NCBI GenBank assembly: GCA_029261875.1
Contig: JAJDAL010000033.1
Coordinates: 143,830 to 207,829 of the forward strand
Reading direction: 5' to 3'
DNA: 64,000 nucleotides
DNA from: Deltaproteobacteria bacterium
GTDB lineage: Bacteria; Myxococcota_A; UBA9160; JAJDAL01
In this document: positions 9,952 through 26,937 of the stretch, piece by piece
How positions within the stretch are numbered: the first letter of the stretch is position 1
Layout of the letters: each line of letters starts with the position of its first letter
Made by a program: the position numbers and the translations under genes
The notes under the pieces: generated by a model
The model's database searches: none
Told to the model about the DNA's origin: nothing
What the model saw: the letters and a program-made list of their open reading frames with translations, nothing else

Positions 9952-10121
9952 CGAACGTCACCAGCCAAGCCCAACCGGGCGCATACGCCCTTTCCGAGTG
10001 TTCAAATCTGTTGAATCTCGGCAAAACATGATCGAACAAATGATTTTCCGTGATTACCCGCGGCTCTCAATCGTAACTTGTGATATTCGCTGCAGCTCAT
10101 TTACGCTTGGGGAGATTCGTC

Positions 10122-10631: not shown

Positions 10632-10633
10632 CC

Positions 10634-13600
10634 ATGGGAGTTCTAAAGCGAACACTCGTCGGCATTCTCGCTCTCCTCGGCCTCGCGTCGACGGCGACTG
10701 GCCAAAACTCGACCGAGGCGTCTCAAGGCGTCAACGGCTTTTTTGGTTCGTTCTCGACCGAAATTCCGATCGAGGTACCGCCCTTTCACGGCATCCAGCC
10801 CCGAATCAAGTTGGTGTACAACTCCGGTTCCCAAAACGGCTGGGTGGGTGTGGGGTGGAACGCTGCCGCGACGTCGATCGTCCAGAGAACTTCCGCGCGC
10901 CGCGGAGCTCCGAAGTACGACACCACCGACATCTACATGATCGACGGAATGGAGCTGGTTCCCTGCACGACGCAGGGCGGAACTCACTGCACTCGAATCC
11001 AGAACTTTGCGCGGGTTGAGCGCAACGAAGCGAGCGACCACTGGACCGCCACTGGCACCAACGGAAACGTCGCGGTCTACGAACCCCTGCTTTCCATCGC
11101 AGAGGGAACGTTTCGGTGGGCGTTGACCAGCGTCACGGACCCCCTCGGGCACACGGTCGACTACGAGTACTGGTGCGACGGACAGGACTGCTACCTGGAC
11201 CGAATTTCGTACACAGGTGCAGAAATTCAGTTCCTTAGCGAAACGCGCCCCGACCCGATTCCGTTTGGAAACGGAAAGTGGATCAACCGCACAAACTACC
11301 GCCTCAAGGCGATTGACGTGCGAGTCTTTGGTTCCACCGCCAGAGCATACCAGCTCGACTACGACACGGGATCGAGCACAGGACGATCTCGGTTGATCAA
11401 CGTTCAGCTATTCGGAAATGACGCCCTAGTCAACGGAACCCAAATATCGGGGACCAGCTTCCCCCCGCAAACCCACAGCTATCAAGAGCTCCAGAACGCC
11501 AACTACGGAGGTGGCCCCGCGTGGGCAACAATTCTCAACAACGGCGGAAACCAATTTCAACCTGGGCAGACGCGTGTAGTCGACATTTCGGGAGACGGAT
11601 TCGACGACCTAATCTTTCAAGATGACCTGAATGCGTTCCACGTCGCTCTTTCCACGGGAACGGATTTTTCGTCACCACAGACTCCAACCATCGACCACGG
11701 AGGCGGATTCGAAGCGGGGCGGGCCCACTATGCCGATGTCAACGGCGACGGGCGGAGTGACCTCATTTTCCAAGGAAACAGCAACGAGTTCTATGTTTCG
11801 TTGTCGGACGGATCCAACTTCCTTCCGGGTGCAATCTGGGAAGATCATGATGGATCCTTCGTCTACGGCCAGGCTCAGTTCGGCGACGCAAACGGGGACG
11901 GACTCGCAGACCTCATTTTCCAAGGTAATGACAACGCCTTCAATGTTTCGCTTTCCTCCGGGACTGACTTCATGCCGTCTTCCGTATGGGGGCAGCACGG
12001 TGGCGACTTTGTCAGTGGACAGGCTCAGTACGCCGACTTCAATGGCGACGGCATGATCGACCTCGCGATGCAAACCGACAATGGTCCAACCCTGACTCAG
12101 TTCCACATCTGGCTTTCGGACGGCACTCAGTTTGTCGGAAGCCCGAGCTGGGGAGGACACGGCGAGCAATTTCAACCCGGTCAGGCCGCCTACGCGGACG
12201 TCAACGGCGACGGAATGTCAGATCTGATATTTCACGCAAACAACAACATCTGGTGGGTCAATCTTTCGCGCGGAACCACCTTCGACGGTGCAAATCATTG
12301 GTTCAGTCAGCCGGGGTCGTCCGAGCCCGGCCGAACCGGATACGGCGACTTCAACGGCGACGGCCGTGTCGACATTTCCGTCCAATTGTCCGGCACGGGG
12401 CAACAGTTTTTGATTGGACTATCAAACGGCCTTCAGTTTGTCCATTCCGGCGCGTGGATCGGCCACGGGGGCGGATACGTCAACGGTGCAATGACGTACG
12501 GCGACGTCAACGGCGATCGCCTTACGGATTTTGTCTACCGAGGCGGCTCCGACTACTGGGTCAACAACAGCCTCGGTGAAATTCCCGACCTGCTATCCGC
12601 TGTCGACAACGGGCGAGGGGGAAGTACGCAGGTCGTCTACGACCCATCGACGCGGTGGAATACGACACCAGGAACCGAGCTCCCACTGGGACTAATCCAA
12701 CCAGTTGTTTCTTCGGTGATCTCTTCGGATGGACGAACCAACCCTTCGACGACCGACTACTTTTACGAGGGAGCAAAGTGGGAGTCGACTGAACGTCGGT
12801 TCCTGGGGTTCCACACGACAACCGAAGTCATGACAGCGGTTGGCAGCTACGCGATCACGGAGTTCCTTCAGAACGCCTACGCGATCAACAAGCCCGCACA
12901 GCGGTGGTTGTTCGGGCCGAACGACGAACTCCTCTCAGGCGAGATGCTCCAGTACACAGAGAACACCGAAAACCCACCCTTTACATCGCTTCTCACATCA
13001 CGCTGGCAATATGAATGCAACGGCGTTCCCACAATCACGCAGTGTCGGGAGACTCGAATTGATTTTGCGTACGACATCTATGGGAATGTCTATGAAACAG
13101 TGGAGCACGGAGACACCAACGTTATCGGTGACGAACGCATGCGCACACGTGGACACTTTCCGAACACGGTCGACTACCTCGTTGGATTCCCCGCCTTCGA
13201 AGAGGTTTTCGAGGGGATGGGCGACCCTGGAACGCTTCTCCTCGTGCAACGCTCCGAGAATCTCTACGACGGAAACACTGCAATAGATCAACCGCCGACA
13301 GACGGACTCGTCACCTCGAAACGCCGACTGAAGGATGGCGGCGGCTTCGCTGAATCGTTCTACACATACGATTCCCACGGAAACGTGAAGACGGAAGCCG
13401 ACGAACGCGGGCACCAGACTACGTACCAATGGGACACGAAGGTCTACCAGTACGAGACATCGCGTTGTAACGGATTTGACCACTGTGTCACAGAGACGCA
13501 CGACCTTGACTTCAGTACGGTCCGCTTCTCGACGGATGAGAATGGGATAGCAACTGAATTTCGCTACGACGCCCTAGGGCGAATAGTAGACATCATTCGC

Positions 13601-16423
13601 GTTGATGGGACCAACCGATCGTTCCAATACCTCGATACGGGCGACCCGAACCTACAACGCGTTCGTGAAACAGCATACGACGGAACCCCAGATGGACTCT
13701 GGACGGAGAAATACCAGGACGGCCTTGGTCGGGTATTCAAGACCGTCCGGGAAGGACCGATAGAGGGTGGCCAGCCTACGACTCTTGTTCAAGAAACCAT
13801 CTATGACGGGTCCTCCACGCGCGCCCTGCAGCGATCGCTATGGCACCGAGGAACCGAATCACCGCGCTTCGTCACTTTCTCTTACGACGCCGCGCTTCGC
13901 CCCCGAATCGTCACCAACCCGGATCTTTCTGAGCGCGAAACCCTATATGGACTAATTTTTGGCATTCCAGTCGAAACTCGATCGGATGAAAACGGGAATC
14001 AAACGATTTACCTCAAGGACGCCTATGGACGCACCGCCGCGATTTTCGAAAGCGACGGTGAAACGACGATCCCGACAACATTCAACTACGACTCCCTCGA
14101 CCGTGTCGTCAGCACCCTGACCGACAAGGAGATTACGGTCACATGGAACCTCCTCGGCGAGCGCACCGAGCTCTGCGACCCCAACTTCGGGTGCGTGACG
14201 CACACCTACGAGGCAGGCGGTCTACTCGCCGTAAGGACCGACGCCAAGAATCAGACCCTCACTTATGACTACGATGCCATCGGTCGCGTCCGATTCGAAG
14301 CCTCGTCTGACGGCGATGTCCACGAGTGGCGGTATGACGAAGCGAACCATGGGTACAGCGCTGGGCGCCTCACGACCATTCTCTATCCCGCCGGCTCCGA
14401 GTCCTTTGAATATGACACGTTTGGTCGAGAGACGGCTGTCACGCGAACGATCGCGGGCGCAGGATCGAAGACATTCCTTGCTGCTTATGGCGCCACCAGT
14501 CGACTCGAATCGCTGACCTATCCAGACAGCGAAATCGTCACCTACCAATATGATGAGTCGGGCCGACTGTCGTCCGTCCCCGGGTATGCTCCAACCCTCG
14601 AATGGTCACCTAGCGGGCAGCTGAGACAGATCGAATACGCAAACGGGACAACCTCGCGGTTCGACTATGACCAAGACCGACTCTGGCTCGATCGCTCCCG
14701 AGTCGACGGCCCCCGCGGAAACTATTACGACGTTTCGTACGAATACGACGTCGGTGCTCGCCTCGTGACAAGCAATTCGACGCTGAACCCCGAGATGAAC
14801 CTCGGCTACCAATACGATCCCCTAAACCGACTAATTGGGGTTACAGGCTCCCAGTCCCAGTCGTTCGACTACGGCACGCGGGGCAACACGCTCTACAACA
14901 GCTCCCTGGGAGACTATTTCTACGAAGCCGCCGCTCACCCTCATGCTGTCACACGCGTAGGCGACAAGAACTATCAGTACGATACAAACGGAAATTTAAA
15001 ACGAATGTGGCTTTCGACCGGCAGCGGAAGCTGCGGCCAGAATACGATAGCGACCCTTACGTGGAGCGGCCGAGACCGGCTCGAATCAATCGACAAGCTG
15101 GGTGCACTCGTTGAGTTCGCTTACGACAGCGAGAACATCCGCGTGCGAAAGACGACTGCCACGGGGAGCACTTACTATTTTGGTGACATCCTCGAGGTCC
15201 TCGAGGACGGAACCGAAGTCAAGTACTACAACGCGGCAGGGATACTTATCGCGAAAAGAGTTGGCTCAGATCCGTTCTGGTTCCACGCGGATCGCCTCGG
15301 TTCTCCCAAGCTAATCACCGACGCACAAGGCCAAATCGCATCGTCTTTCGAGTACTCCTCCTTTGGGGAAGAAACAACGATGTCTGGCTCGATGGCCAGT
15401 GGACGCGGATATACGGGACACCGTCTCGACTCCGAAACCGGTCTCGTGTATATGAACGCGCGATACTACGACCCCGAGCTGGGACGATTCATTTCCTCTG
15501 ACGATTTCGTTCCCAACCCGAACAACCCGCAAACGTTCAACAAGTACGCCTACGCAGACAACAATCCTATTTCCAACGTCGATCCCAGCGGAAACAACGC
15601 CAAAGACATCATCACGAAGATCGCTGCCGTTTTCCTCGCAGTGTTCCTACCGCCCGGATATGCGCTTCTCGTGGGCGTGATTGGGTTGGGACTTTCAATA
15701 GCCGGTTTCGCGACCGAGAACCCAACACTTGTTTTTATCGGGCAAATTCTCCTTGGAGTCGCGGCGACAAATCTAGTTGGTGGAAATCTTCTATCACCGG
15801 CTGGCAATCCAGGCACAAGCCCAGGCTGGCCGCATTTTGGGGGAACTTTCTCTGATGGAGGTACGGGGAACACGACCAACAAGATTCGAGAAGCCGTCGA
15901 CGCTGTCGACAAAGCTAGGGAAATTTCTCAAGCGGTTGGCGAGAAACGCAAAGAAACCGCGAAAGACGACGCGGCCGCCAACCTGGCACTTGATCAGCTT
16001 CGAAAATACAATCCAATTTCGGTCGAAACCGACACTGAGTATGGCGGTTTTATCTATGAATTTGGAGATGGAACGTTGGGCGCAACGCCATCGGTGTCGT
16101 CTCCTTGCCTCGGGGGAACCAGCTGTGAGCTTCCGTTGGGGGACCTAGCTGAGTCGATCCCGGATGACGCCTCAATCATTCTCGACTGGCATACGCATGG
16201 GGCGGCACCCGCCACGAACCCGATGCGCTGGGAGCGATTCAGCAGGAATGATGTGATGGGAACCAATCAATTGGGGTCCTCTTATGGAACGTTCCGGGGT
16301 TCTTACCTTGGCACACCTCAAGGACGCGTCTACTTCTTGCCTCCGGGACGAATCTCGGGATCTCAATGGTCCGAGCGAGCGATTCGGCAGGCGCAACAAT
16401 ATCAAGGGAGAATCCCAAGGTGA
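10634..16423 (+). CDS. SpvB-N / FG-GAP propeller / RHS (YD-repeat) polymorphic toxin with a variable C-terminal domain
   Basis: 1929 aa. Signal peptide MGVLKRTLVGILALLGLASTATGQ. SpvB-type N-domain (SFSTEIPIEVPPFHGIQPRIKLVYNSGSQNGWVGVGWNAAATSIVQRTSARRGAPKYD). Seven FG-GAP/VCBS repeats. Many YD repeats (YDALGR, YDSLDRV, YDAIGRV, YDESGRL, YDPLNRL...). RHS core end: YMNARYYDPELGRFISSDDFVPNPNNPQTFNKYAYADNNPISNVDPSGN. Confidence 0.92.
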   Translation: MGVLKRTLVGILALLGLASTATGQNSTEASQGVNGFFGSFSTEIPIEVPPFHGIQPRIKLVYNSGSQNGWVGVGWNAAATSIVQRTSARRGAPKYDTTDIYMIDGMELVPCTTQGGTHCTRIQNFARVERNEASDHWTATGTNGNVAVYEPLLSIAEGTFRWALTSVTDPLGHTVDYEYWCDGQDCYLDRISYTGAEIQFLSETRPDPIPFGNGKWINRTNYRLKAIDVRVFGSTARAYQLDYDTGSSTGRSRLINVQLFGNDALVNGTQISGTSFPPQTHSYQELQNANYGGGPAWATILNNGGNQFQPGQTRVVDISGDGFDDLIFQDDLNAFHVALSTGTDFSSPQTPTIDHGGGFEAGRAHYADVNGDGRSDLIFQGNSNEFYVSLSDGSNFLPGAIWEDHDGSFVYGQAQFGDANGDGLADLIFQGNDNAFNVSLSSGTDFMPSSVWGQHGGDFVSGQAQYADFNGDGMIDLAMQTDNGPTLTQFHIWLSDGTQFVGSPSWGGHGEQFQPGQAAYADVNGDGMSDLIFHANNNIWWVNLSRGTTFDGANHWFSQPGSSEPGRTGYGDFNGDGRVDISVQLSGTGQQFLIGLSNGLQFVHSGAWIGHGGGYVNGAMTYGDVNGDRLTDFVYRGGSDYWVNNSLGEIPDLLSAVDNGRGGSTQVVYDPSTRWNTTPGTELPLGLIQPVVSSVISSDGRTNPSTTDYFYEGAKWESTERRFLGFHTTTEVMTAVGSYAITEFLQNAYAINKPAQRWLFGPNDELLSGEMLQYTENTENPPFTSLLTSRWQYECNGVPTITQCRETRIDFAYDIYGNVYETVEHGDTNVIGDERMRTRGHFPNTVDYLVGFPAFEEVFEGMGDPGTLLLVQRSENLYDGNTAIDQPPTDGLVTSKRRLKDGGGFAESFYTYDSHGNVKTEADERGHQTTYQWDTKVYQYETSRCNGFDHCVTETHDLDFSTVRFSTDENGIATEFRYDALGRIVDIIRVDGTNRSFQYLDTGDPNLQRVRETAYDGTPDGLWTEKYQDGLGRVFKTVREGPIEGGQPTTLVQETIYDGSSTRALQRSLWHRGTESPRFVTFSYDAALRPRIVTNPDLSERETLYGLIFGIPVETRSDENGNQTIYLKDAYGRTAAIFESDGETTIPTTFNYDSLDRVVSTLTDKEITVTWNLLGERTELCDPNFGCVTHTYEAGGLLAVRTDAKNQTLTYDYDAIGRVRFEASSDGDVHEWRYDEANHGYSAGRLTTILYPAGSESFEYDTFGRETAVTRTIAGAGSKTFLAAYGATSRLESLTYPDSEIVTYQYDESGRLSSVPGYAPTLEWSPSGQLRQIEYANGTTSRFDYDQDRLWLDRSRVDGPRGNYYDVSYEYDVGARLVTSNSTLNPEMNLGYQYDPLNRLIGVTGSQSQSFDYGTRGNTLYNSSLGDYFYEAAAHPHAVTRVGDKNYQYDTNGNLKRMWLSTGSGSCGQNTIATLTWSGRDRLESIDKLGALVEFAYDSENIRVRKTTATGSTYYFGDILEVLEDGTEVKYYNAAGILIAKRVGSDPFWFHADRLGSPKLITDAQGQIASSFEYSSFGEETTMSGSMASGRGYTGHRLDSETGLVYMNARYYDPELGRFISSDDFVPNPNNPQTFNKYAYADNNPISNVDPSGNNAKDIITKIAAVFLAVFLPPGYALLVGVIGLGLSIAGFATENPTLVFIGQILLGVAATNLVGGNLLSPAGNPGTSPGWPHFGGTFSDGGTGNTTNKIREAVDAVDKAREISQAVGEKRKETAKDDAAANLALDQLRKYNPISVETDTEYGGFIYEFGDGTLGATPSVSSPCLGGTSCELPLGDLAESIPDDASIILDWHTHGAAPATNPMRWERFSRNDVMGTNQLGSSYGTFRGSYLGTPQGRVYFLPPGRISGSQWSERAIRQAQQYQGRIPR
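11582..12545 (+). other. seven tandem FG-GAP/VCBS-like Ca-binding repeats inside the RHS protein (probable 7-bladed propeller)
   Basis: DISGDGFDDLIFQ, DVNGDGRSDLIFQ, DANGDGLADLIFQ, DFNGDGMIDLAMQ, DVNGDGMSDLIFH, DFNGDGRVDISVQ, DVNGDRLTDFVYR, at a period of roughly 45-50 aa. Confidence 0.8.
15593..16420 (+). other. RHS C-terminal variable (payload) domain downstream of the DPSG core boundary
   Basis: 276 aa after ...NVDPSG (15581-15592). Two hydrophobic TM-like stretches: IITKIAAVFLAVFLPPGYALLVGVIGLGLSIAGF and PTLVFIGQILLGVAATNLVGG. A soluble region follows, with EYGGFIYE (from 16037), WHTHG (16187-16201) and FSRND (16238-16252). Confidence 0.7.
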
Positions 16424-16880: not shown

Positions 16881-18335
16881 CTAGAGAATTGGAACCGTTC
16901 TCAACGAGGTATTGGGCATTTCCCGCGCCTCCTGAATGAGACCCGCCCGCCCTATGGGGTCAACCATCCCCGAGCCCCCACCGTGGGTCGCCCTAATCCA
17001 CGGTCGCCTCGTCTCAATCGCCCTGAACGTCGCGGCCGCAAGGTGCTGTAGCGACTCACTGGGTGAGTGGAACCACGAATCGCTTACGAGAGCGATGTAC
17101 ACATCGGGGATAAGCCGACTCATTTTCATGATATGGTCTTTGTCAAGATCTTCCGAGCAAATTGCAGGAGCGATAACTATCGAACCAAACGGAATCGTTT
17201 CCACTCGTCGCCCGTAAGCGAGGACCGGCGCATCGGGAAGTCTTCGTCGAATTTTTTCGCTTGCCCGAGGGAACCTCGTTTCCGCGAAGGGAGTTTCCGC
17301 AACCGGAACCAGCTGAACCTTGTCATATCGCCCTAGGATTTCTCCACTTTCCCCTACAAGAACGGCCGAGTTCCATACGCGCTCGGTCCCAATTTCGTGC
17401 GTGAGAGTGCCGAACAAGATGGGGACGTTGGTTCCCCGACGCTGAGCCCAAGGATGGTGCTCCGAAAAAATTCGCGTCGCAGCGCGATCCATTCGGTACG
17501 GCCAGACTGCCTCGGGCCAAACCACGAGGTCTGCACCCATATCCGCGAGATCCTTCGTTCCCTTACGAAGGACCTCGACGTATTCCTGAGCGCGCTCCTG
17601 GCGTTCCGAGAGGGTGAGGTGTCCGAATCCTGGTTCGACGATGCCCACTCGAATCGTTTGAGCTGACTCCATCGAACGCATGACTTGGTAGGCTCGAATC
17701 AATCCACTCGCTTGGACCAACCCAAACACGGCGAGCGCCAACCCGGTCAATCGGTAGAGCGCTACTCCGTTCCGCCAAGCGACGAAGCATTCTCCCACGA
17801 TGACGTTCGCCAACACGATGAGCGCAACGACGGCTGAAGTGCCTCCCCACTCGGCGACCTGAATCAGCGGCCAGAGGCGCCACCAGAGAATCGCGAGGTC
17901 CCACTCGAACAGAGGCGGAGGAAACGAGCTCGAAACCATTGCGACGACCGGTGCTGCAACCAGCCATGGAATCCGCTCCCGTCGGCCCACAACAAGCCGG
18001 GTCAACCCTGCCCAGATTCCAAGCTGAAGACCGTGGTATGCGCAAAGAAGCATTGCTCCGAGGAGCGCGACCGGAATCGGGAGGTCCGCGAACCGCATGA
18101 GAGTCGGCGTCCACCACCAACACCCGACAAAGTTCACGACGAAGCCCGTGACCCAACCCGCCTTGAAAGAAGCCCCCACCCTTAATCCGCGGATAGCGAT
18201 CCAAAGAGGAATCAGGCAAACGAACGAGAAGATCCAGACGTCGTAGGGAGGGGCGGCGACGACAACGAGGCCGCCAGACAGGAGCGAGTGGTAGATCCAG
18301 GGGTGCTGAGGAAGCCAGCTGCGTCTGCCGTGCAC
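16881..18335 (-). CDS. lnt: apolipoprotein N-acyltransferase
   Basis: 484 aa. Polytopic N-terminal half plus a CN-hydrolase domain with an E-K-C triad context: VVWPEAVWPY, RYDKVQLVPVAETPF, IAPAICSEDL. Confidence 0.8.
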   Translation of the reverse strand: MHGRRSWLPQHPWIYHSLLSGGLVVVAAPPYDVWIFSFVCLIPLWIAIRGLRVGASFKAGWVTGFVVNFVGCWWWTPTLMRFADLPIPVALLGAMLLCAYHGLQLGIWAGLTRLVVGRRERIPWLVAAPVVAMVSSSFPPPLFEWDLAILWWRLWPLIQVAEWGGTSAVVALIVLANVIVGECFVAWRNGVALYRLTGLALAVFGLVQASGLIRAYQVMRSMESAQTIRVGIVEPGFGHLTLSERQERAQEYVEVLRKGTKDLADMGADLVVWPEAVWPYRMDRAATRIFSEHHPWAQRRGTNVPILFGTLTHEIGTERVWNSAVLVGESGEILGRYDKVQLVPVAETPFAETRFPRASEKIRRRLPDAPVLAYGRRVETIPFGSIVIAPAICSEDLDKDHIMKMSRLIPDVYIALVSDSWFHSPSESLQHLAAATFRAIETRRPWIRATHGGGSGMVDPIGRAGLIQEAREMPNTSLRTVPIL

Positions 18336-18728
18336 CGGACAATCGTAACACGCGAATCGATGGGACTAAATGGCGGAATCCGCACTCAGCCCTGGAAATC
18401 AAAGGAATTCAAACAGATCTCGACCGCCGAGTCGGTGCCCTGGATGCTCTTGCGCTGTACCAACTGAATCCGGTTGCTCAAGGTCGTTGAGTTCCCACAT
18501 CGAAGCCATGTGAAAGCCGGCTACACCAGCTTCTCCATGCTATGCCTCGGATACCCGGCTGCGATTTTTGCCACGGAGGGCGCGACCGAGTACAACCAGG
18601 CTCGTCAGCTTGAACTTTATCTGGGAGGATCCCGCCAGCGCCTTCGGACCCTTCCGGGTCGATCTCGAGAGCTGCTCGACCAGCCAGCACGTCTGGTGCG
18701 TGGAGGACTGGAACTGACGGGAGAATTC

Positions 18729-18753
18729 GTGGAGGCGGCGGGAATCGAACCCG
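18729..18753 (-). repeat. 25-nt exact copy of the ssrA 3' end (att-like remnant), direct repeat of 26576-26600
   Basis: GTGGAGGCGGCGGGAATCGAACCCG occurs at both positions in the same orientation, with mismatched flanking bases on both sides. The copy at 18729 cannot be folded into a tRNA or tmRNA. Confidence 0.75.
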
Positions 18754-19909
18754 TCGGCCTACTCGGACTTCCGCTCCCGCCACTTCGAATTCTACAGCGT
18801 CGGTCGACAGATCCGCGAAATCGAATCCAGACATGGAAGTCATCAGATCCAACTGACCTGCTTGAGGATGGATCGCGCTAAGAATCGCGCCGTTCTCGAT
18901 GATCCTCGTGAGAACGAGAGCATCGTCGAGATCGACAAACGGTTCGTTACCTCACTCGAACGCACAGCCAAGCCCCGAGAGCACAGAAAGCGCGCGAGCC
19001 AGTGCAGCCAGCGTGCGGGCGAATCCACTAGCGGGTTCGGACACGCTTCGCCTTACGAACTTCTCCCGCGAAATGCAGCTGGGTCGACATCGCTTCAGCA
19101 CCCAGGTCTTGTCAGTCCCGGGACGATTCCAAGGCTGTCTCTCGATTTACTTCGCAATCTCAGCAATAGACATCGGCATCGCGAGGCATCCTTCGGTTGC
19201 GAATCGTACGACAAGCAACCCATCGGTCCTGCCCGGCCAGGCGGCACGAGTGATGGACCCGGACGCAAAGTATTCGAACCGCGACGGGGTGCCATTCGAG
19301 ATGGCTCTGGTCGAGACCTCCGAACTGCCCGCCGTTGGCCTTCGGGCACCAGCGCGTCAACCCGTTGAAATCGCCCCGAATCGGGGCCCTATCCCCCTCG
19401 CCGGGTGGATGGTTGAGTGAACCGGTACTTGTCGGACGTGCCGAGAACGCAGCTTCCCTTTCCTATGCCCGACGAAAGTATTCTTCTGGATTGGCGTTGA
19501 ACATTCGAGCCGGTTCAGAGTGCTAGATCTTCCTCGGATGGCGTCAAAGGCACGGTGACATCTTCGAATCATCACGAATGCGATCGCAACGCGATCAACT
19601 TCGCAATCGTCGCATCGTTGCGAAATGGACGCATGAATCTCTCCACGTGGGAACAATCGTTCACTTCGGTGGCACGACCCGGTTTGTGACGTCCCTTCGA
19701 TGGACATTGGAGTCGAACATTGGAACAGCATCGAGCGCGCCGATCCACAAGACGGTGGTTCGAAATTCAGGACGACATTGATCTCAGCGTGCTCGACAAC
19801 CGCAACTGGAATCGACTCGATTGGGACGGAAACAACGAGTTCACTGGCGCAGCGCGTTTCGGACGCTGGGTCGTTGACCTCCCTCGGATTCATGGAATAG
19901 GAGAAAGCA

Positions 19910-21046
19910 ATGTTGAAACCTTCGCACGGAATTCTGGCGTTCGCGATGGTCGGCCTCCTCACGGGCTGTCCGGTCAATAAGACGACACTCATCGTTGGAA
20001 CGGCGAGCTTTGGCAACGAAACCGGCGGTGGCTGGTTTGAACGATTCAAAGGCCTTCCACCGGGAGACTCCAAAGGCTGGGACCGGGTTTCTGAATTCGA
20101 TCTCTATAGCGACAGCGGGGGTGGCGCTCGCCCCGTCCTGTGCAACTTCGATGACGATGGCCGAAATGAAGTTGCCATCGGGTTGGACAGCCTTCCCGGC
20201 AATGGAGGCTGGGTACAAATCCTAGACGATGAATCAACAGGCTTCGCCCATCTCGCATGGGTGCGGTACCGAACCAACACGATCTACGATTCCAACAACG
20301 GAGAAACACGACCCGCCTGCGGCGACGTCGACGGCGACGGTCGGGATGAGCTCGTGGTGGGCGGTGGCCCTGGAAGCAGCACGCTCCTGCAGATCTTCGA
20401 TGATGCCACCACGGACTTCGCGCATCTCGACTACCAACTACTGCTCACCGACATTGGGTACCTGGTTACCAACGGCGAGACACGGCCCGTGTTGTGCGAT
20501 GTAGACGGCGACAATCGGGATGAGATCGTGATGGGCCTCGGATCCTTCCATTCGGGCAAAGGCGGCCGAGTCGCCATCTTTGACGATGCGCTACGTGAAT
20601 ACAGGCTGCTCACTGAGCTGCAGACCACCTGGGGCGCTGCTCGAACAAAGGGTACGGGAACACGACCCGCCTGTGGTGATCTCGACGGCGACGGTCTGGA
20701 CGAGATCGTGATGGGCTTCGGCCCCGGCACGAAAGGCTGGCTCGAAATCTTCGACGATGCCGTCGCAGTGCATGCGCCCATCGGCTGGACTCGGGTGAGC
20801 TGGACCGACTACAACGACGCGCAAGGAGAAACCTTCCCGGCCTGCGGTGACATCGACAACGATGGTGTCGCTGAGCTGGTGATCGGCCTCGGCGCCTATC
20901 CAGAGAACGGTGGCTGGTTCGAAACCCAGGACGGCTTTGATCGCAGCGATCCCGTGCAACTGCTCGACAACCGCGATTGGGGGCGACTCGATTGGGAAGA
21001 ATACAACGAGTTCAGCGGTGCGACGTTTCCGACAGTGGGTCGTTAG
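19910..21046 (+). CDS. FG-GAP/VCBS-repeat lipoprotein
   Basis: 378 aa. AGGAGA RBS. Lipoprotein signal MLKPSHGILAFAMVGLLTGC. Five repeats of the type CNFDDDGRNEVAIG, CGDVDGDGRDELVVG, CDVDGDNRDEIVMG, CGDLDGDGLDEIVMG, CGDIDNDGVAELVIG. Confidence 0.75.
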   Translation: MLKPSHGILAFAMVGLLTGCPVNKTTLIVGTASFGNETGGGWFERFKGLPPGDSKGWDRVSEFDLYSDSGGGARPVLCNFDDDGRNEVAIGLDSLPGNGGWVQILDDESTGFAHLAWVRYRTNTIYDSNNGETRPACGDVDGDGRDELVVGGGPGSSTLLQIFDDATTDFAHLDYQLLLTDIGYLVTNGETRPVLCDVDGDNRDEIVMGLGSFHSGKGGRVAIFDDALREYRLLTELQTTWGAARTKGTGTRPACGDLDGDGLDEIVMGFGPGTKGWLEIFDDAVAVHAPIGWTRVSWTDYNDAQGETFPACGDIDNDGVAELVIGLGAYPENGGWFETQDGFDRSDPVQLLDNRDWGRLDWEEYNEFSGATFPTVGR

Positions 21047-21132
21047 GCAAGGGGGCTGCTGGCGAGCGGCATACGTGGCCGATGCCGGCAGCCCCTAACC
21101 AGGAGTCTCCTGGAGACAGATCGGATGCTGCA

Positions 21133-22398
21133 ATGAAATCGTGGTGGCTGCTTATCCTACTTCTTTCGCTGGTTGCGATTCCTGCTGTCGCTGCCGAGCC
21201 CGCGCAGATCGGAAGCCTGGCGCTTCGCGACCTGCGCGCGCCGTCGGCCATCGAGCTGTCGACGGACGGCGCCACCCTGTACCTGGGCACGGTGCGAAGT
21301 CGAAAGCCTGAGCTCTACGTCATCGACGCGTCAATCCCGGAAGCGCCTGTGATCGCGGATCTCGTGGAAGTTGGAGCCCGTGTCCATGACATCGTGCTCG
21401 GCAATGGTCGGATCTATCTCGCGACAGGACACCCCGCGACGGAGCTCCTGATCCTGGATGCCGGAACCCATGCGGAGGCCGGCCGCTACGACCTGCCTGG
21501 ACGGCGCGCTGCGCGTTCGCTCGAGCTTCTGGAGAATGGCAACCTCCGAGTCGGCCGGAAACGCGGACAGGGCGCGCAGTATTTCGAGATCGACGTCCGC
21601 GATCCCCATCTTCCCGTGCTGATCGGTACCTCGAACTCCCCCAATCGCATCCCACGGCCCACTCGCGCCAGCGCGCCTCCTTCCTATCGCGAGGCTGGGC
21701 TGGTGCGAGCACGCCAGGATTTCCCCATTCCCTTCGGAACGCGCTTCTTCCTGGTCAGTCGGGTTCGCGGGCGCGGGTTGCTCCAGGTCGTCGAGCAAAT
21801 CGCGCCGGTGCGATTCCTCGACGCCAACGGCGACGGCCGTTTCGTGCTCGGATGCTTGGGAGATTCCAATACCGTCGCCAGCCCCTCATTCAAGAGGTGG
21901 TGCGACCGCCTGAAAGAGCGGGTCAACGACAGCCAATTCCGCATCCACAACATCGCGGTCTCCGGCGCAACCGCCAACTCGAATCTCAACCCGGCCCAGC
22001 CGGGCAACGATTTGCCCAATCAGATGGCGGAGATCCCCTCGCTTCGACCCGCGCTGGACGCCGTGGTGATGAGCTTTGGCACCAACGACATCTTTCAGGG
22101 GCGGCCGCCGGAGACGGTGGTGGACGCGTATCTCGCAGCCGCCGAGCTGGCCGAGGCGAGAGGTCTCGCGGTCTATGTCACCACCACGCCACCGCTACGG
22201 GGATGTCTGGATGCCGGATGTCCCGGGGCGGAGGCACAGAATGCGCTGATCCGTACGGCGTTCCCCGGGCAGTTCATCGAATTCTACGACGGCATCCACG
22301 AAGCGCAGTTTGCCGACGGCATTCATTTCAACGCCGACGGACAGATGCTTCGGATGCAACGGGCCTTTGACATGATCGCCGTCGAGGAGGCGGACTGA
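21133..22398 (+). CDS. exported protein: beta-propeller-like N-terminal half plus SGNH/GDSL hydrolase domain
   Basis: ATG 21133 gives the signal peptide MKSWWLLILLLSLVAIPAVAAEP; the track ORF starts upstream at 20977, inside the previous gene. LVIVD-like strands (ELYVIDASIPEAPV, ELLILDAGTH). SGNH blocks: LGCLGDSNT (I), SFGTNDI (III), DGIHFNADG (V). Confidence 0.7.
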   Translation: MKSWWLLILLLSLVAIPAVAAEPAQIGSLALRDLRAPSAIELSTDGATLYLGTVRSRKPELYVIDASIPEAPVIADLVEVGARVHDIVLGNGRIYLATGHPATELLILDAGTHAEAGRYDLPGRRAARSLELLENGNLRVGRKRGQGAQYFEIDVRDPHLPVLIGTSNSPNRIPRPTRASAPPSYREAGLVRARQDFPIPFGTRFFLVSRVRGRGLLQVVEQIAPVRFLDANGDGRFVLGCLGDSNTVASPSFKRWCDRLKERVNDSQFRIHNIAVSGATANSNLNPAQPGNDLPNQMAEIPSLRPALDAVVMSFGTNDIFQGRPPETVVDAYLAAAELAEARGLAVYVTTTPPLRGCLDAGCPGAEAQNALIRTAFPGQFIEFYDGIHEAQFADGIHFNADGQMLRMQRAFDMIAVEEAD

Positions 22399-25300
22399 TG
22401 ACCGCACTGAATCGGATCCCGGTGGCCGCCCTCGCGGGAGTACTTCTTGTCTTCGCCGCCCCTGCCTCGGCAGGGATCGACAAGGAAAACCTCGTCGCCA
22501 TCATCAGCCCCGCGACCGTCACGCCGGCCGTCGAGCTCCCCATCGAGCCCGGCGAGACCTCGACCCAGGTGCTCCTGGAGGTTCGATTCGGTGAGTTGCC
22601 CGACGGGACGGGCGCAGATCCGGATACCTTCAAGCCGCGCTTCACCGGAATCAAGTCGAAGCTTCTGCTCCCGATATTCGAGGACGTGACCGACTCGGAC
22701 GGTCGCCTCGTCGGAAAACGGGCTGTCGTCGACATCCCCTACGTGAGCGACAGGAAGAACTACAGATTCTCCGCGCGGGTGAAGTCGAAGCCCTATCAGA
22801 GCGATTCCGGACGCTTCCGCACCACCAGCGATACGGACCGCGCGCGGCTGCGGCTGCGGCGCAATACGCCGCCAGTGATCGCGAACCTGCGCCTCGGCGG
22901 AGAAACACTCGAGAACGCCGACGGCTCCTGGCGAGTCAATCCGGGGCAGGGGATCACCGTGGAAGCCGACCTCTCGGATCCCGATGGCGATCGGGTGGTC
23001 CATTACAGTGTCGACTTCGGAGACAATGCCTCCGCCGAACGCACCAGCTCAGCTGGCTTCGGCCATGTGAGCGAGCCGCACACCTATCAGGGAACCGCGA
23101 GCAGCTACCGGATCTTCATCACGGCCTCCGACGGGGTCACGTCGACGAGCGCAGAGCTGAACCTGGCGTTGAACAGTGCCCCAGTGCCGGTTCTGCGGAT
23201 TCTCCCCGAGGAAGGCACCTTCCTCTACCCCGTGCTCTTCGATGCGCTCGACAGCGTCGACTCCGACGGCGATGCGCTCCGCTACGAGTTCGATTTCGGG
23301 GACGGCACAACACCCACGATCGGTAGCGAGCCCCGCGTCGAGCACATCTATCCCCGGCCCGGCAAGACCAAGGTGGTCTATCCGGTGCGAGTCACCGCTC
23401 GCGATTCCCTCGGTCTCTCCGCCTCGGTCCAACGCGAACTGGTGGTCAAGCGGGCGCTTACCGGGGAGACTCTGCTGCAGCTGGCTGCGCCACTCGGGCG
23501 CGAGACCGTTCAAGTGGGCGACCACCTGCCGGTTCGCGTCGAGGTCGGACGGGCCAGCAGCGGTGCTCTCATCGACCTCTCGAGCTTCGATGCCGCACTC
23601 AATGGCGTCGATGTCACCAGCCACTTCACTCCGGTTCTGGATCCGGAACGGGGCGGTGAGATCCTGCGTCTCGAGGGCGCGATCCCCCTCGAGCTCGTCG
23701 CTCAGGCAGGCAACAACAGCATCCGGGCGACAGCCCGCAGCCTGCCCTTCCTCAAGGTGGGGCAGACCACACCGACGACGCTCGTCGATACCGACTGGTC
23801 GCGGTATTTCCGTGTCAGCACAAACGCTCGGCCGACAGCAACTTTCACCGCCTCCCCGGGTGCACCGCTGGAGGGCGACACCGTCTCCTTCGACGCATCT
23901 GCCAGCTCTGATCCAGAGGGTGCGCCGCTCCTTTTCCGCTGGGACTTCGGAGACGGCACCCCCCTCACGACCACCGCCGCCGTCGTGACCCATGTCTACG
24001 AGAACGAAGGCATCTACCTCGTCGAGCTGACGGTATACGACGGGGTGTGGGAAGTTGTCGCGGCCCCGTTGAGTATTCCGGTGGTGCCCGAGACCGGGCC
24101 GCCGGGCGATCCGCTGCTGGAGATCTCGCCGGACAGCGCAACGGGCCTGGACTTCGGCGCGATCAATCTCGACAACGCCTTCCCTCCGTTCTTTCAGTCG
24201 GCCCGTGAGCGCATCGTCGAGATCCGGAACGCCGGTCAGGGACTGCTCTCTGTCGACTCGATCTCGCTATCGGATCCGAATGGAGTGTTTCGGATCACTT
24301 CGCCCGCGGTGCCATCGCTCCAGGCGGGCGAGAGCCACTTCCTGTCGGTGGAGTTTCGCCCGACGACTCGCTCCGCGGGCAGCCACTCGGCCGGCATCGA
24401 GATCCGGAGCAACGGCGGAAACGCCCAGCTGAGCCTCAGCGGCGTCGGGACTCTCGATCAGGTCGAGTACTCCGACATGCTGACCGCCTTCGATGTCGAT
24501 CCCGGCCCCCCTTCGGCGGTGATTGCGGACTTCGGACTCAGCTTCGGGCGCAAGACCAGGAGATGGAACCAACTGGGCAACCAGGCGCGGCTCGAAGTAT
24601 TGCCCTCCGGTCCCTGGCCCTTCGGTCGCGTGGTGGGCGTCGAGATCGTCGGCCAAGATGCCGGGGCGTTCGGAGCCAGCCTGAACCAGACCCTCTTCGG
24701 CTTCACGCCCGGTGTCTCCCACATTTTTCCGGCCGAGTTCGACCCGCCGAATCCGCACATCGAAATATCTTTCGAGCCGGGCGAGGTCGAGAGCAGCCGG
24801 CGCTTCTCAGCGGTCATGAACGTTCATTGGCAGCACCCCATCGCGCCCTTCGTCTTCGGCTGGGTCGACGGGGAGCCGATCCAGGTGGGGCTCATGGGAG
24901 TGGCGTCGAGGGCCGGACAGGTCGCCTTCTCGGCACCGCCAATGGAGTTCCAGCGCATCGCACAGGGGCAGAGTACGGACCAGCTGGGCTCCGCCCGATC
25001 GGGGCTGGTCCCGGCCCGAATCAAAGCCACCTATCTCGCCGGAAGCGAGACCGTGACGGGCTCGGTCGAGATCACCCCGATCCATCCGCCGGGTCACTCG
25101 GCGTTCACGGTCACATCCCCCAGCTGGACCCTCGACCCCGACCAGCTGGACCCGAGCAACCCTTCGATCTTCATCCCGGTCGAGTTTCACTCGAGCACCT
25201 CCGGCCACTATTCGGCGGTCCTCAGCATGCAGCCCAACGCCGCTCACATCCCGGCCCGCAAGTTCCTGCTCCACGGCTACGTCAAGGGCGACAACTCGAT

Positions 25301-26405
25301 CGGTGTCCTCGGCAGTCCGGAGACCCTCTACTTCGTCGACGACGAGTACTTCAGCGGCTTCAGCAATGATGGCGATTTCAGCACTCGGGTGATCGGGCTG
25401 TCGGCATCCGGCGGCGTGGCCAACAACGGTCGGGGGCATGCCGACCTCGCCGTCATCGACGACCCGTTCAGCTCGCCTTCCCTCGAAGCCGGAACCGACC
25501 AGTGGATCGAGGAGCCGAGCGACGTGGTCGTTGTGAACGACACCGTCTACGCGATCGATTCGGAGGTCTTCGAGCACTCGTCCTGCGTCCCCGAGCTCAC
25601 CGACCACGCCTGCGATCGCATCGCCGCCGGCGGAATCGGAACCGGTGCAATCGTCGAGGACGACCGGTTCCTCGGGGGTCTCGAAGCGAGCTCCGGCGAC
25701 GCGGATCTCGTGTACGACGGAGAGAGCCTTCTCGAACTCGACGCCACTTCCGACGGCCGGCTCTTCTTTACCGAATCCCAGAGCTCTTCGGGCGCCGCGA
25801 TCGGAACCCGGTTGCGCTGGCACGACACCCAGAGCGGTGCGACCGGGGCCCTCAGCGACGATCTGATGGCCAGCGTCGGCGCTCCCGCCGGCTCGGTCCT
25901 CGAGGAGCTGCGGGCCATCCGCAATGGGACGAACTACCGACTCTTCGCCATTCTGGAGGACGGCGCGCTCTACGAGCTGGACGTTGCAGGTTCGACGATG
26001 ACGATCAGTGCCACCGCGGTCCTGGCCCCATCGACGCCCCCGGATGCCACCCTGGTCATCGATGCCGATGGCAACTGGATCACCGTCCTGGGCGATGGAA
26101 GCTTCATCGATGTGTGCCGCGAGAGCTTACACGCGGGGGCTTCTTCGCGGACCTGCATCGGCCACGCGGAACTCCCCGCGGAAGATCTCGCGCTTTCCGT
26201 GAAGCTGGACAAGCACGGGAACGTCTTCGTCGAGACCCAGCTTGGTGTCGTGAAGTTCGCTCCCGCCGGACCCGGCAGTCTCCGCTTTGAAGGGTACGTC
26301 CTGGCCGGCGCGAACTACCAGAGCGACAAGTTGCGGGGCGACGATCCCGAGGACACCACCGCCGACATCGACATCGACTTCACGCGCACCTGGTTCGAGA
26401 AGTGA
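22398..26405 (+). CDS. large exported PKD-domain protein with ASH/HYDIN-like beta-sandwich segments
   Basis: 1335 aa. The ATG overlaps the upstream stop (TGATG). Signal peptide ...LLVFAAPASAG. Three PKD signatures: VHYSVDFGDNAS, YEFDFGDGTTP, FRWDFGDGTPL. A later segment (LDFGAINLDN...VEIRNAGQGLLSVDSISLSDPNGVFRITSP) resembles choice-of-anchor-D/ASH domains. Confidence 0.8.
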   Translation: MTALNRIPVAALAGVLLVFAAPASAGIDKENLVAIISPATVTPAVELPIEPGETSTQVLLEVRFGELPDGTGADPDTFKPRFTGIKSKLLLPIFEDVTDSDGRLVGKRAVVDIPYVSDRKNYRFSARVKSKPYQSDSGRFRTTSDTDRARLRLRRNTPPVIANLRLGGETLENADGSWRVNPGQGITVEADLSDPDGDRVVHYSVDFGDNASAERTSSAGFGHVSEPHTYQGTASSYRIFITASDGVTSTSAELNLALNSAPVPVLRILPEEGTFLYPVLFDALDSVDSDGDALRYEFDFGDGTTPTIGSEPRVEHIYPRPGKTKVVYPVRVTARDSLGLSASVQRELVVKRALTGETLLQLAAPLGRETVQVGDHLPVRVEVGRASSGALIDLSSFDAALNGVDVTSHFTPVLDPERGGEILRLEGAIPLELVAQAGNNSIRATARSLPFLKVGQTTPTTLVDTDWSRYFRVSTNARPTATFTASPGAPLEGDTVSFDASASSDPEGAPLLFRWDFGDGTPLTTTAAVVTHVYENEGIYLVELTVYDGVWEVVAAPLSIPVVPETGPPGDPLLEISPDSATGLDFGAINLDNAFPPFFQSARERIVEIRNAGQGLLSVDSISLSDPNGVFRITSPAVPSLQAGESHFLSVEFRPTTRSAGSHSAGIEIRSNGGNAQLSLSGVGTLDQVEYSDMLTAFDVDPGPPSAVIADFGLSFGRKTRRWNQLGNQARLEVLPSGPWPFGRVVGVEIVGQDAGAFGASLNQTLFGFTPGVSHIFPAEFDPPNPHIEISFEPGEVESSRRFSAVMNVHWQHPIAPFVFGWVDGEPIQVGLMGVASRAGQVAFSAPPMEFQRIAQGQSTDQLGSARSGLVPARIKATYLAGSETVTGSVEITPIHPPGHSAFTVTSPSWTLDPDQLDPSNPSIFIPVEFHSSTSGHYSAVLSMQPNAAHIPARKFLLHGYVKGDNSIGVLGSPETLYFVDDEYFSGFSNDGDFSTRVIGLSASGGVANNGRGHADLAVIDDPFSSPSLEAGTDQWIEEPSDVVVVNDTVYAIDSEVFEHSSCVPELTDHACDRIAAGGIGTGAIVEDDRFLGGLEASSGDADLVYDGESLLELDATSDGRLFFTESQSSSGAAIGTRLRWHDTQSGATGALSDDLMASVGAPAGSVLEELRAIRNGTNYRLFAILEDGALYELDVAGSTMTISATAVLAPSTPPDATLVIDADGNWITVLGDGSFIDVCRESLHAGASSRTCIGHAELPAEDLALSVKLDKHGNVFVETQLGVVKFAPAGPGSLRFEGYVLAGANYQSDKLRGDDPEDTTADIDIDFTRTWFEK

Positions 26406-26516
26406 ACCCTCGCGCCGATCGAGGAGAAGGGAATATGCGTGAGCACGGACTTCACCGCCCTTCTAACCGCTCTGGAAACGCGTCGACAACCTATTGGAAA
26501 GAACGAAAATGGTGGA

Positions 26517-26539
26517 GTGAGCGAAATCGCGCTGCTCAC
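26517..26539 (-). terminator. possible intrinsic terminator of ssrA
   Basis: Reverse strand: GTGAGC-AGCGCGATTTC-GCTCAC (6-bp stem, 11-nt loop) followed by TCCACCATTTTCGTTCTTTCC, about 35 nt downstream of the tmRNA 3' end. The stem is short and the loop large. Confidence 0.3.
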
Positions 26540-26573
26540 GATTCCCCACCCTTTCTTAGCGCTATCGCTGAGA

Positions 26574-26937
26574 TGGTGGAGGCGGCGGGAATCGAACCCG
26601 CGTCCGAATGAGCTCTAGTGACCGCGTCTACGTGTGTAGCTCCCGATTAAATTTCGGTGGGGCCTTGGCTCGGGAACGGGGCCAGCACCCACCTAGCATC
26701 GAATAATCTCACCTCCGACGACGACGGTGCCACGGTCCGGAGGCCAGCCTTCTTTTGGCGTTCGCGATCCCCTAGAAGGCGTCGAGGACGAACGTCACTA
26801 ACCTAGTTTCAGCTAGGCAGCGATTGCGTAGTTATCGTCGGCAGTTATCACTACCAAGTGCCACCTGTTTAACGACGGAATGACAAAGTCGACACGCAGC
26901 GTCCACCTTCGACCACCCGTCGAAGCCGATCGCCCCC
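26574..26937 (-). ncRNA. ssrA: tmRNA (SsrA), one-piece; tag reading frame encodes ADDNYAIAA-stop
   Basis: The reverse strand begins GGGGGCGAUCGGCUUCGACGGG and ends UUCGGACGCGGGUUCGAUUCCCGCCGCCUCCACCA. Both ends closely match the conserved ends of E. coli tmRNA. The acceptor stem has the G3:U Ala identity pair. Tag ORF GCC GAC GAU AAC UAC GCA AUC GCU GCC UAG lies at complement(26813..26842). Confidence 0.95.

Follow-up and report, generated by a model that had tools for sequence, protein, structure and literature searches.

Does the DNA downstream of the transfer-messenger RNA (tmRNA) gene ssrA, in the 64,000-nucleotide (nt) stretch of contig JAJDAL010000033.1 analyzed here (hereafter the window), hold a single integrative element that has lost its integrase, or is the history of this locus more complicated? 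In this member of the Myxococcota, a perfect 25-nt copy of the ssrA 3' end recurs 7.8 kb away from the gene, in the same orientation, and the original prediction had recognized in this the geometry of the attL and attR sites of an island. Our analysis leads to a different answer, namely that the DNA from ssrA to the distal 25-mer probably consists of decayed integrative elements arranged in tandem, which entered the tmRNA 3' end one after another by site-specific insertion, a reading to which we would assign a probability of about 75%.

This reading was reached by comparison with distant relatives, the stored loci of which are cited by L-number. The ssrA loci were fetched from GTDB species representatives with a degenerate pattern of the tag reading frame, yielding 111 stretches, nearly all of them from Myxococcota metagenome-assembled genomes (MAGs); ARAGORN calls a tmRNA in 97 of these, which form the sample for all counts at ssrA loci. 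Since the loci were stored as stretches of fixed extent, 8 kb at most, coverage downstream of ssrA is limited, extending to 3 kb or more in only 32. The window organism is isolated in the databases, as evidenced by the proteins that were looked up, which formed singleton clusters at 90% identity, and the sampled tmRNAs are at most 78% identical to that of the window. The closest homologues of its isocitrate dehydrogenase (IDH) are 84% identical, with unrelated genes around them and no ssrA nearby, and the best foreign homologue of its apolipoprotein N-acyltransferase (Lnt) is 37% identical; a scan of genome contigs with Lnt as probe gave no confirmed relative, and a tblastn comparison of the flanking and cargo proteins of the window with the 111 ssrA loci disclosed no shared synteny. 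Promoter and terminator scans gave counts not above those in shuffled sequence.

A probable displaced 3' end of ssrA

The tmRNA gene of the window is intact, encoding the tag ADDNYAIAA as well as the CCA end, and it matches Rfam model RF00023 with 166.8 bits over model positions 1-374 of 374. As had been claimed, the sequence GTGGAGGCGGCGGGAATCGAACCCG, which on the tmRNA strand reads CGGGTTCGATTCCCGCCGCCTCCAC, is found exactly twice in the window (18729-18753 and 26576-26600), both times on the + strand and with 0 mismatches. By chance no such 25-mer is expected (100 shuffles); a third copy with up to 3 mismatches was not found in the window, and no further stretch of the entire ssrA region recurs there when the two are compared by k-mers. 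The repeat takes in four of the five bases on the 5' side of the T-stem, then the T-loop and the T-stem 3' strand, and after these the acceptor 3' strand and the discriminator, ending with the first C of CCA. Beyond either edge of this block identity is lost, with one base out differing and the next matching again (distal CCACGA vs. CCACCA in ssrA). The identical 25-mer is also present in the ssrA of many related Myxococcota, as judged from their ssrA 3' ends and from blastn matches. As in islands bounded by tRNA genes (tDNA islands), an intact tmRNA gene thus stands at one boundary and a 3' fragment in the same orientation at the other.

The flanks of the two copies differ in character. Outside the distal copy, the sequence resembles that following ssrA in L109, L088, L046, L050 and L058, a short similarity judged by alignment and not by a statistic, and blastn matches run past the 25-mer into this outer flank; the sequence now following ssrA in the window is unlike the native flank of those relatives. 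Since the outer flank is native-like and the ssrA-adjacent flank is not, the distal copy reads as the displaced original terminus of ssrA. This comparison, the nearest substitute for an empty site, supports that reading, and the att-like geometry first proposed is upheld. In addition, run SRR15505512 was assembled independently in Logan, and that assembly (L001) agrees with the window at 100% identity over 17235-21649, which shows that the distal junction does not stem from a single assembler.

Probable relics between ssrA and the distal repeat

Within the bracketed DNA, we distinguish two relics. The one nearer ssrA (relic A, 19251-26573) has three exported-protein genes between ssrA and a 33-nt junction sequence, in which an attP P half-site is joined to the last bases of ssrA, reading TCCA/TCA in the window (the slash marks the joint) and TCCACCA in most relatives. 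A metagenome scan for this 33-mer (CGCGGTTCGAATNCTTTGCGTCCGGGTCCAYCA) returned 12 exact matches, to which L116 is added to make 13 other loci; the 33-mer does not vary among the 13, and past TCCACCA each locus continues with a sequence unrelated to the others. Conservation in L116 is 89% over the 33-mer and the adjoining ~50 nt on the inner side. Beyond the 33-mer of the window, the sequence aligns with the spacer that follows ssrA in L061 and L108, and L130 has the same order as the window, with the 33-mer followed after 1.2 kb by a 26-nt copy of the ssrA end. Taken together, these sequence features identify the 33-mer as the putative attR of a CcrB/DsiB-like large-serine-recombinase element that targeted the last bases of ssrA. 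In the position before the operon of relic B (see below), where ssrA ends in L108 and L061, the window has CCGTCGCGGTTCGAATACTTTGCGTCCGGGTCCATCA (19287-19251, minus strand). The idea that the ssrA end is present a third time, in decayed form, at 19251-19287 (anchored p ~0.008) was rejected, given that the seemingly degenerate sequence is invariant in the 13 other loci.

Overlapping the 33-mer on the opposite strand is a remnant of the C-terminal helix-turn-helix (HTH) tail of a recombinase. In the relatives this tail, encoded opposite the 33-mer strand with synonymous variation, has the consensus WWTRTQRIRTAA..PFEVALV..YQ.IARKALHLRELGLSDR.IA.RLGVTDKTVAKAIRWL; the remnant in the window is 82-89% identical at the nucleotide level to L116, L130, L135, L133, L129, L128 and L138, and the match to HTH_23 is weak. 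That the tail might be a separate small gene or the end of an insertion sequence (IS) was rejected, since it forms the in-frame C-terminus of a large serine recombinase in L133 and L138. Neither a tblastn search of plasmids and phages with the tail nor a search of viral contigs for the 33-mer gave a match. The 33-mer is the only half-site in the window, a search for a second one with up to 3 mismatches having found none, and the attL of a serine-recombinase element, with its inverted P' half-site next to ssrA, is absent. With the ssrA-linked large serine recombinase of the clade as query, tblastn found only a trivial antisense-ssrA stretch in the 64 kb, and a profile of the ssrA-linked tyrosine integrases of the clade found none there. 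Together with a negative six-frame Pfam scan of 18400-19950, these searches bear out the prediction that the bracketed DNA has no recombinase.

What the complete element may look like is exemplified by L138, a 10.6-kb island in which the ssrA 3' domain, P' half-site, recombinase, cargo, tail and 33-mer follow one another. The contig begins in the ssrA 3' domain; behind it lies the half-site in inverted form (P'), which pairs with the 33-mer as an inverted repeat. The large serine recombinase encoded next (576 residues) has Resolvase, Recombinase and zinc-ribbon domains, and its gene, convergent with ssrA, continues across the junction; the closest NCBIfam model of the enzyme is CcrB, with 91.5 bits lying far below the cut-off of 900. 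As in L138, a large serine recombinase adjoins attL and is convergent with ssrA in L018 and L040. In L133 (549-1142), the recombinase C-terminus, an inverted-repeat attP around TCCACCA and the HTH tail of ~80 residues are contiguous and in frame, with one TAG in frame, and we take this to be an uninterrupted attP inside the recombinase gene. In L138, the corresponding parts lie apart (1-1755 vs. 10464-10715) and the resident gene ends in ~21 codons antisense to ssrA, as if the parts had been separated by integration into ssrA. The attP reconstructed in this way is GCGGTTCGAATTCTTTG...TCCACCA...CAAAGTATTCGAACCGC. Because the recombinase reading frame crosses attP in L133 and L138, integration would change its C-terminus. 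From the 33-mer and the tail relic at 19251-19333 we favor, if only by a little over even odds, the existence in Myxococcota and their allies of a CcrB/DsiB-like island family that targets the last bases of tmRNA and whose recombinase gene spans attP, with integration swapping the HTH tail of ~80 residues for ~21 residues antisense to ssrA, in effect a built-in switch between an integrating and a resident form. Our literature search found no description of a serine recombinase gene spanning attP.

Relic B (19179-18754, minus strand) lies beside the distal repeat and is a pseudogenized operon, comprising an open reading frame (ORF) of 50 residues and a DUF2204-like nucleotidyltransferase. The small ORF has an in-frame TAA and a 1-nt deletion as compared with the intact copy in L108 (the copy in L102 is intact as far as the stored stretch runs). 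The nucleotidyltransferase pseudogene, recognizable by tblastn with 65% identity over 77 residues (E = 1e-27), has a 126-nt deletion of the catalytic N-terminal region and an in-frame TGA; its last ~100 nt are lost as well, so that the reading frame continues into the distal repeat. Around the start of the operon, the window is 74-81% identical at the nucleotide level to L108, L061, L060 and L102 over ~150-165 nt, including 81% over 159 nt. The six-frame Pfam scan of 18400-19950 had no match, and both pseudogenes were seen only by comparison with relatives; the ~1.1 kb that had been described as devoid of a convincing gene is so on the surface, yet it holds these two pseudogenes, an att half-site and a recombinase-tail fragment. 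Upstream of the operon, the spacer at 19180-19250 has homologues in front of the operon in relatives, and it probably represents the sequence that lay downstream of ssrA when the serine-recombinase element arrived.

In the relatives the architecture of the operon is conserved, with the 50-residue ORF and an ORF of ~171 residues overlapping by 17 nt, and gene finders call the small ORF in L118-L126. The nucleotidyltransferase family has 405 matches; of the 120 that were listed, those that are full-length and non-self (mostly 166-174 residues) have 61-81% identity, and one truncated member of 145 residues is 92% identical over 84% of the query. The intact homologues match PF09970 (DUF2204) weakly, with E = 2.4e-5 and 4.5e-4, values lying at the cut-off or slightly above it, and have no match in NCBIfam; a literature search on DUF2204 gave no paper. 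In L108, L071 and L075, the operon alone lies between ssrA and the repeat, forming a unit of 0.7 kb in which a repeat of 27-34 nt starts right after the TAG stop codon, and the nucleotidyltransferase of L108 is only ~34% identical to the L071 and L075 proteins. The operon also follows ssrA in L060 and, decayed and without a repeat, in L061. In L102 it follows a copy of the repeat and not ssrA itself, which points to displacement by a later insertion. In other lineages, the operon also occurs in regions rich in IS elements and toxin-antitoxin genes. From these positions we infer that the operon is carried as cargo by elements that integrate into tRNA and tmRNA genes; its two products may form a toxin-antitoxin pair.

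Further observations were made on the operon. In L123 (5599-7781; also in L124-L126), tRNA-Lys(CTT) precedes it by 190 nt, and 27 nt of the tRNA-Lys 3' end recur 2.1 kb downstream; this repeat does not adjoin the operon, being 1.2 kb beyond it. The neighbor of the operon in L121 (5799-7004) is tRNA-Gly(GCC), the 3' end of which is present in two additional copies between that gene and the operon. As for the window, the 74-81% identity to L108, L061, L060 and L102 falls in 19004-19164, covering the start of the operon and ~120 nt of the 50-residue ORF, and the tmRNAs of these loci are only 73-76% identical to that of the window; this likeness would reflect either unusually strong conservation or horizontal spread.

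Directly after ssrA, the spacer leading to the stop codon of the PKD-domain gene holds a unit of ~60 nt (26508-26573), which begins CAGCG[A/T]TAGCG..., contains a hairpin and has a CCACCA-like end. The unit closes with another CTCCACCA (26510-26517), which forms an additional, degenerate copy of the ssrA terminus. It is 81% identical over 75 nt to the units that follow ssrA in L060 and is single in the window, with ~2.5 tandem copies in L060 (300-493). No P' half-site and no recombinase remnant were found in 26406-26573. Possible origins of this unit are a minimal att-to-att scar and the duplication of a terminator. The coordinates of all features are collected in Table 1.

Table 1. Features of the window from lnt to ssrA, in order of position
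Feature	Position	Strand	Basis	Remark
lnt (apolipoprotein N-acyltransferase)	16881-18335	minus	Pfam LNT_N and CN_hydrolase; TIGR00546, 192.9 bits vs. cut-off of 132.9	
Native-type ssrA-downstream flank	18704-18728	minus		ATTCTCCCGTCAGTTCCAGTCC... on tmRNA strand; outside the array
Distal 25-nt repeat copy	18729-18753	minus as feature		Probable displaced ssrA terminus; putative attR of older element
DUF2204-like nucleotidyltransferase pseudogene (~171 residues)	18754-19044	minus	tblastn, multiple alignment	
50-residue small-ORF pseudogene	19028-19179	minus	Alignment with L108 and L102 copies	
Spacer	19180-19250	minus	MAFFT	Homologous to pre-operon sequence after ssrA or repeat copy in L061, L108 and L102
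33-mer CGCGGTTCGAATACTTTGCGTCCGGGTCCATCA	19251-19283	minus	Exact pattern matches	Putative attR junction of large-serine-recombinase element
Recombinase C-terminal helix-turn-helix tail remnant	19253-19333	+	blastn, tblastn, translations	~27 codons, frame-shifted, truncated
Non-coding stretch, tail fragment to first cargo gene	19334-19909	none	Six-frame Pfam; blastn against all loci	No match in either search
FG-GAP lipoprotein gene	19910-21046	+	Pfam	
GDSL/SGNH hydrolase-like gene	20977-22398	+	Pfam	
PKD-domain protein gene (1335 residues)	22398-26405	+	Pfam	
Spacer, ssrA to PKD-gene stop codon	26406-26573	minus	Sequence; blastn vs. L060	
ssrA, intact tmRNA gene	26574-26937	minus	ARAGORN; Rfam RF00023	Integration target; proximal boundary of the array
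Proximal 25-nt repeat copy	26576-26600	minus as feature (within ssrA)	Sequence	

Proposed successive insertions and competing explanations

Based on these junctions, we postulate that the locus was built in two steps, starting from a chromosome in which ssrA adjoined lnt. First, an element carrying the operon, and using an identity block as long as the T-arm plus acceptor strand (27-34 nt in the relatives), would have entered ssrA, pushing the original ssrA terminus and its native flank to 18704-18753, beside lnt. Subsequently, as the junction sequences suggest, a CcrB/DsiB-like element would have entered the last bases of ssrA, with the crossover at TCCA/CCA, leaving its attR at 19251-19283 and setting its cargo between ssrA and the older relic; this element may have brought, or may later have acquired, the three exported-protein genes. 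Throughout these events ssrA would have stayed functional because such elements bring a replacement 3' end or cross over at its tip. Decay followed: the serine recombinase gene and the P' half-site are gone, ~27 codons of the tail are left, and both operon genes are pseudogenes. Today the segment would be an immobile relic, and its mobilization would require a matching recombinase provided in trans. The suggestion of an old island with a decayed integrase was right about the loss of the recombinase and probably wrong about a single element, there being at least two relics of different element types.

Several points weigh against this proposal. The insertions are deduced from junction sequences, with neither an empty site nor a close relative at hand. 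The attL of the serine-recombinase element is unrecognizable in the window, and the ~60-nt unit resembling that of L060 follows ssrA in its place, so that at least one further event, either a deletion or a small insertion, must be assumed. The oldest repeat is perfect (25/25) beside a badly decayed operon, for which the probability of no change under neutrality is ~0.05-0.1 by a rough estimate from two nonsense substitutions. Linking the recombinase of the older element to the tyrosine integrases is a guess on our part. Finally, the three exported-protein genes are assigned as cargo by their position, and they exhibit no compositional anomaly and have no homologues in the other elements seen.

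The most serious competitor, which we nevertheless deem unlikely, is a single old island, in which one tyrosine-integrase element between the 25-mers held everything and lost its integrase, with the 33-mer and the recombinase tail being unrelated debris. The two perfect 25-mers are indeed the only long ssrA-derived repeats in the window, tyrosine integrases adjoin ssrA in 7 relatives, and recombinase-less segments bracketed by repeats, with varied cargo, exist in relatives. This explanation leaves unaccounted for why the 33-mer sits exactly where the ssrA terminus belongs relative to the operon and is then followed by a post-ssrA spacer of the L061/L108 type, why the same 33-mer is an island boundary at ssrA in L138 and L130, and why the operon plus repeat makes up a complete 0.7-kb unit in L108, L071 and L075, with nothing else inside.

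The chance of only ~5-10% that the distal 25-mer would stay unchanged under neutrality is the reason for keeping a minor rival, which would modify the successive-insertion reading and not replace it: the distal copy may have been kept for a function, either as a secondary att site refreshed by passing elements or as a tRNA-like 3' element of the operon transcript. Consistent with such a role are the perfect 25/25 match beside heavily decayed pseudogenes, the repeats of relatives being exact over 23-34 nt, the recurrence of the operon beside tRNA-Lys and tRNA-Gly, and the stop codon of the nucleotidyltransferase abutting the repeat in L108, L071 and L075 despite ~34% protein identity between L108 and the other two. 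Against it, the operon to be served is dead in the window, L061 retains a decayed operon without any repeat, the repeat in L123 is 1.2 kb past the operon, the neutral expectation is only mildly violated and no recombinase is present in the window; on balance we consider a retained function improbable. More improbable by far is that the repeat is unrelated to integration and arose by chance, through faulty assembly or by duplicating the ssrA end locally. The source is a MAG and no empty site is at hand, but no such repeat is expected by chance, the independent assembly reproduces the distal junction, and the flanks carry element-specific junction features common to many unrelated contigs. A repeat of 25 nt is also shorter than typical assembler k-mers, which speaks against an artefact of assembly.

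Returning to the tandem array of decayed elements, the three exported-protein genes would probably be fixed cargo. They are co-oriented and convergent with ssrA; the FG-GAP and PKD proteins form singleton clusters at 90% identity, and no homologues of the three were found in ~130 related loci. With GC content at third codon positions (GC3) of 0.68-0.82, and codon usage as well as GC3 within the range of the rest of the window, their composition does not stand out. To the left, lnt is the first chromosomal gene outside the array and not part of the element; to the right of ssrA follow a gene for a PDZ protein and that for monomeric IDH. The original prediction had offered, as an alternative, a composite element reaching left into an RHS block; this is unsupported since a bona fide lnt intervenes and no further ssrA-derived repeat occurs to the left.

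Two observations concern this left side. Lnt is unusually divergent, as its best non-self identity (37%) compares with 84% for IDH from the same window, and the GC3 of lnt (0.65) is at the low end for the window. Left of lnt, the window carries a Tc/RHS-type toxin gene (1929 residues; 10634-16423, and 10080-10631) with SpvB, TcdB middle/N-terminal, FG-GAP, RHS-repeat and C-terminal DUF4329 domains; this region has the lowest GC in the window (0.55-0.58), and no att-like repeat ties it to ssrA.

ssrA as an integration target in relatives and in known systems

Across the clade, ssrA is visited repeatedly. An exact or near-exact repeat of 23-34 nt from the ssrA 3' end lies 0.7-3.5 kb downstream in 10 of the 97 loci, and in 7 a tyrosine integrase gene is found 67-228 nt downstream and convergent with ssrA; as a family these seven are tyrosine recombinases, with PF00589 in five of the seven and a profile that matches the structures of XerC, XerA and XerD. 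In a further 2 of 97, a large serine recombinase overlaps the ssrA end. These counts show that the ssrA of these uncultured Myxococcota has been visited by at least two recombinase families. Segments bracketed by repeats and lacking an integrase also appear to be common at ssrA in the clade.

A number of individual loci deserve mention in their own right. In L017, L019, L028, L080, L086 and L109, segments of 1.4-3.5 kb without a recombinase lie between ssrA and an exact 23-30-nt repeat of its 3' end, the cargo annotated in four of them being unremarkable, namely a TPR protein (L019), an NMT1/bestrophin-like protein (L028), a CdhD-like 4Fe-4S protein (L017) and a Rieske oxygenase (L086); in L082, a RES toxin lies beside a 15-nt repeat. 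Within the first ~70 nt after ssrA in L025, L049, L035, L083, L067 and L092, short tandem direct repeats precede the integrase stop codon (ACTCGGGGCAA twice, CTGGAGGAACA twice, and a GTTCCG type), and these look like arm-type integrase binding sites, a putative assignment. Genes for IS91-family (Y2_Tnp) transposases recur near ssrA, the 33-mer or the operon in unrelated contigs (L010:5069-6754, with ssrA on the + strand; L129:1-1596; L118:8856-10340). One MAG chromosome, CP070734.1, has two matches to the tag region, a complete tmRNA (L048:2208-2693) and a second match (L079:7521-7699) that covers only the 5' ~175 nt, is 84% identical to that part of the window tmRNA and receives no ARAGORN call; the latter may be a partial duplicate of ssrA.

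Decayed islands are the ordinary fate at a well-known insertion hot spot, and for the window itself the outcome matters little. What looks like a tidy 7.8-kb "island" would be layered debris at a classic hot spot, the junctions of which became readable in the absence of a close relative by comparing ~110 distant ssrA loci. A more interesting lead is the serine-recombinase family exposed by this comparison, with a sharply defined, invariant attP half-site in its own gene; recombinases of this sort, which naturally target a universally conserved gene, have practical appeal as tools for genome engineering. Islands of tyrosine integrases in tRNA and tmRNA genes were reportedly the subject of 'Traffic at the tmRNA gene' (Williams, 2003).

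How does the locus compare with known systems? In the Islander database (PMC4383910), islands are bounded by a tDNA and a displaced 3' fragment, may lie in tandem arrays, and are enriched most strongly at the tmRNA gene. The identity block at our locus, extending from the T-stem to the 3' end, corresponds to the class termed 'T-stem region attP' there; however, Islander requires an on-board integrase, which is lacking here, and one junction of the window belongs to a putative serine-recombinase element. Cis-mobilizable elements (CIMEs) are flanked by att sites, are devoid of genes for recombination or transfer and can form arrays by accretion, a concept that has been applied to ssrA islands lacking a recombination module (PMC3146451). 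Likewise, our segment is edged by att-type sites and encloses neither recombinase nor transfer genes. In contrast to a CIME, the P' half (the attL of the serine-recombinase element) is missing in the window, so that the serine-recombinase unit is probably no longer a substrate; the segment is best described as a relic array, at most a candidate for cis-mobilization.

A recombinase gene that crosses its own attP has precedents among tyrosine integrases, namely IntP of phage Mx8 of Myxococcus xanthus (PMC6070905) and the SSV integrases (PMC4383910). The recombinase frame in L133 and L138 similarly crosses attP, and the C-terminus would be altered by integration; in contrast to those integrases, the enzyme here is a large serine recombinase and the exchanged part is the ~80-residue HTH tail, of which the window keeps a relic only.

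The closest precedent is the set of tandem ssrA genomic islands (ssrA-GIs) of Dehalococcoides (McMurdie et al. 2011, PMC3146451), in which a CcrB-like serine recombinase is encoded on the reverse strand next to attL; islands without this module were proposed to be cis-mobilizable or fixed. The two systems share the following: 1) islands lie in tandem downstream of a tmRNA gene present in a single copy, with ssrA and repeats of its 3' end as boundaries; 2) a conserved motif on the element side abuts the ssrA-derived part of attR; 3) an enzyme of the CcrB family is encoded on the reverse strand beside attL, here in the relatives. They differ in that our locus belongs to Myxococcota vs. Chloroflexi and the window itself is without a recombinase. 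In addition, the crossover deduced here would lie at the extreme 3' end (TCCA/CCA) and not in the T-loop, so that the ssrA-derived part of attR comprises only a few bases vs. the 20-bp repeat in Dehalococcoides. A DsiA, ParB or Mom-type integration module was not seen in our loci, and the recombinase gene here crosses attP.

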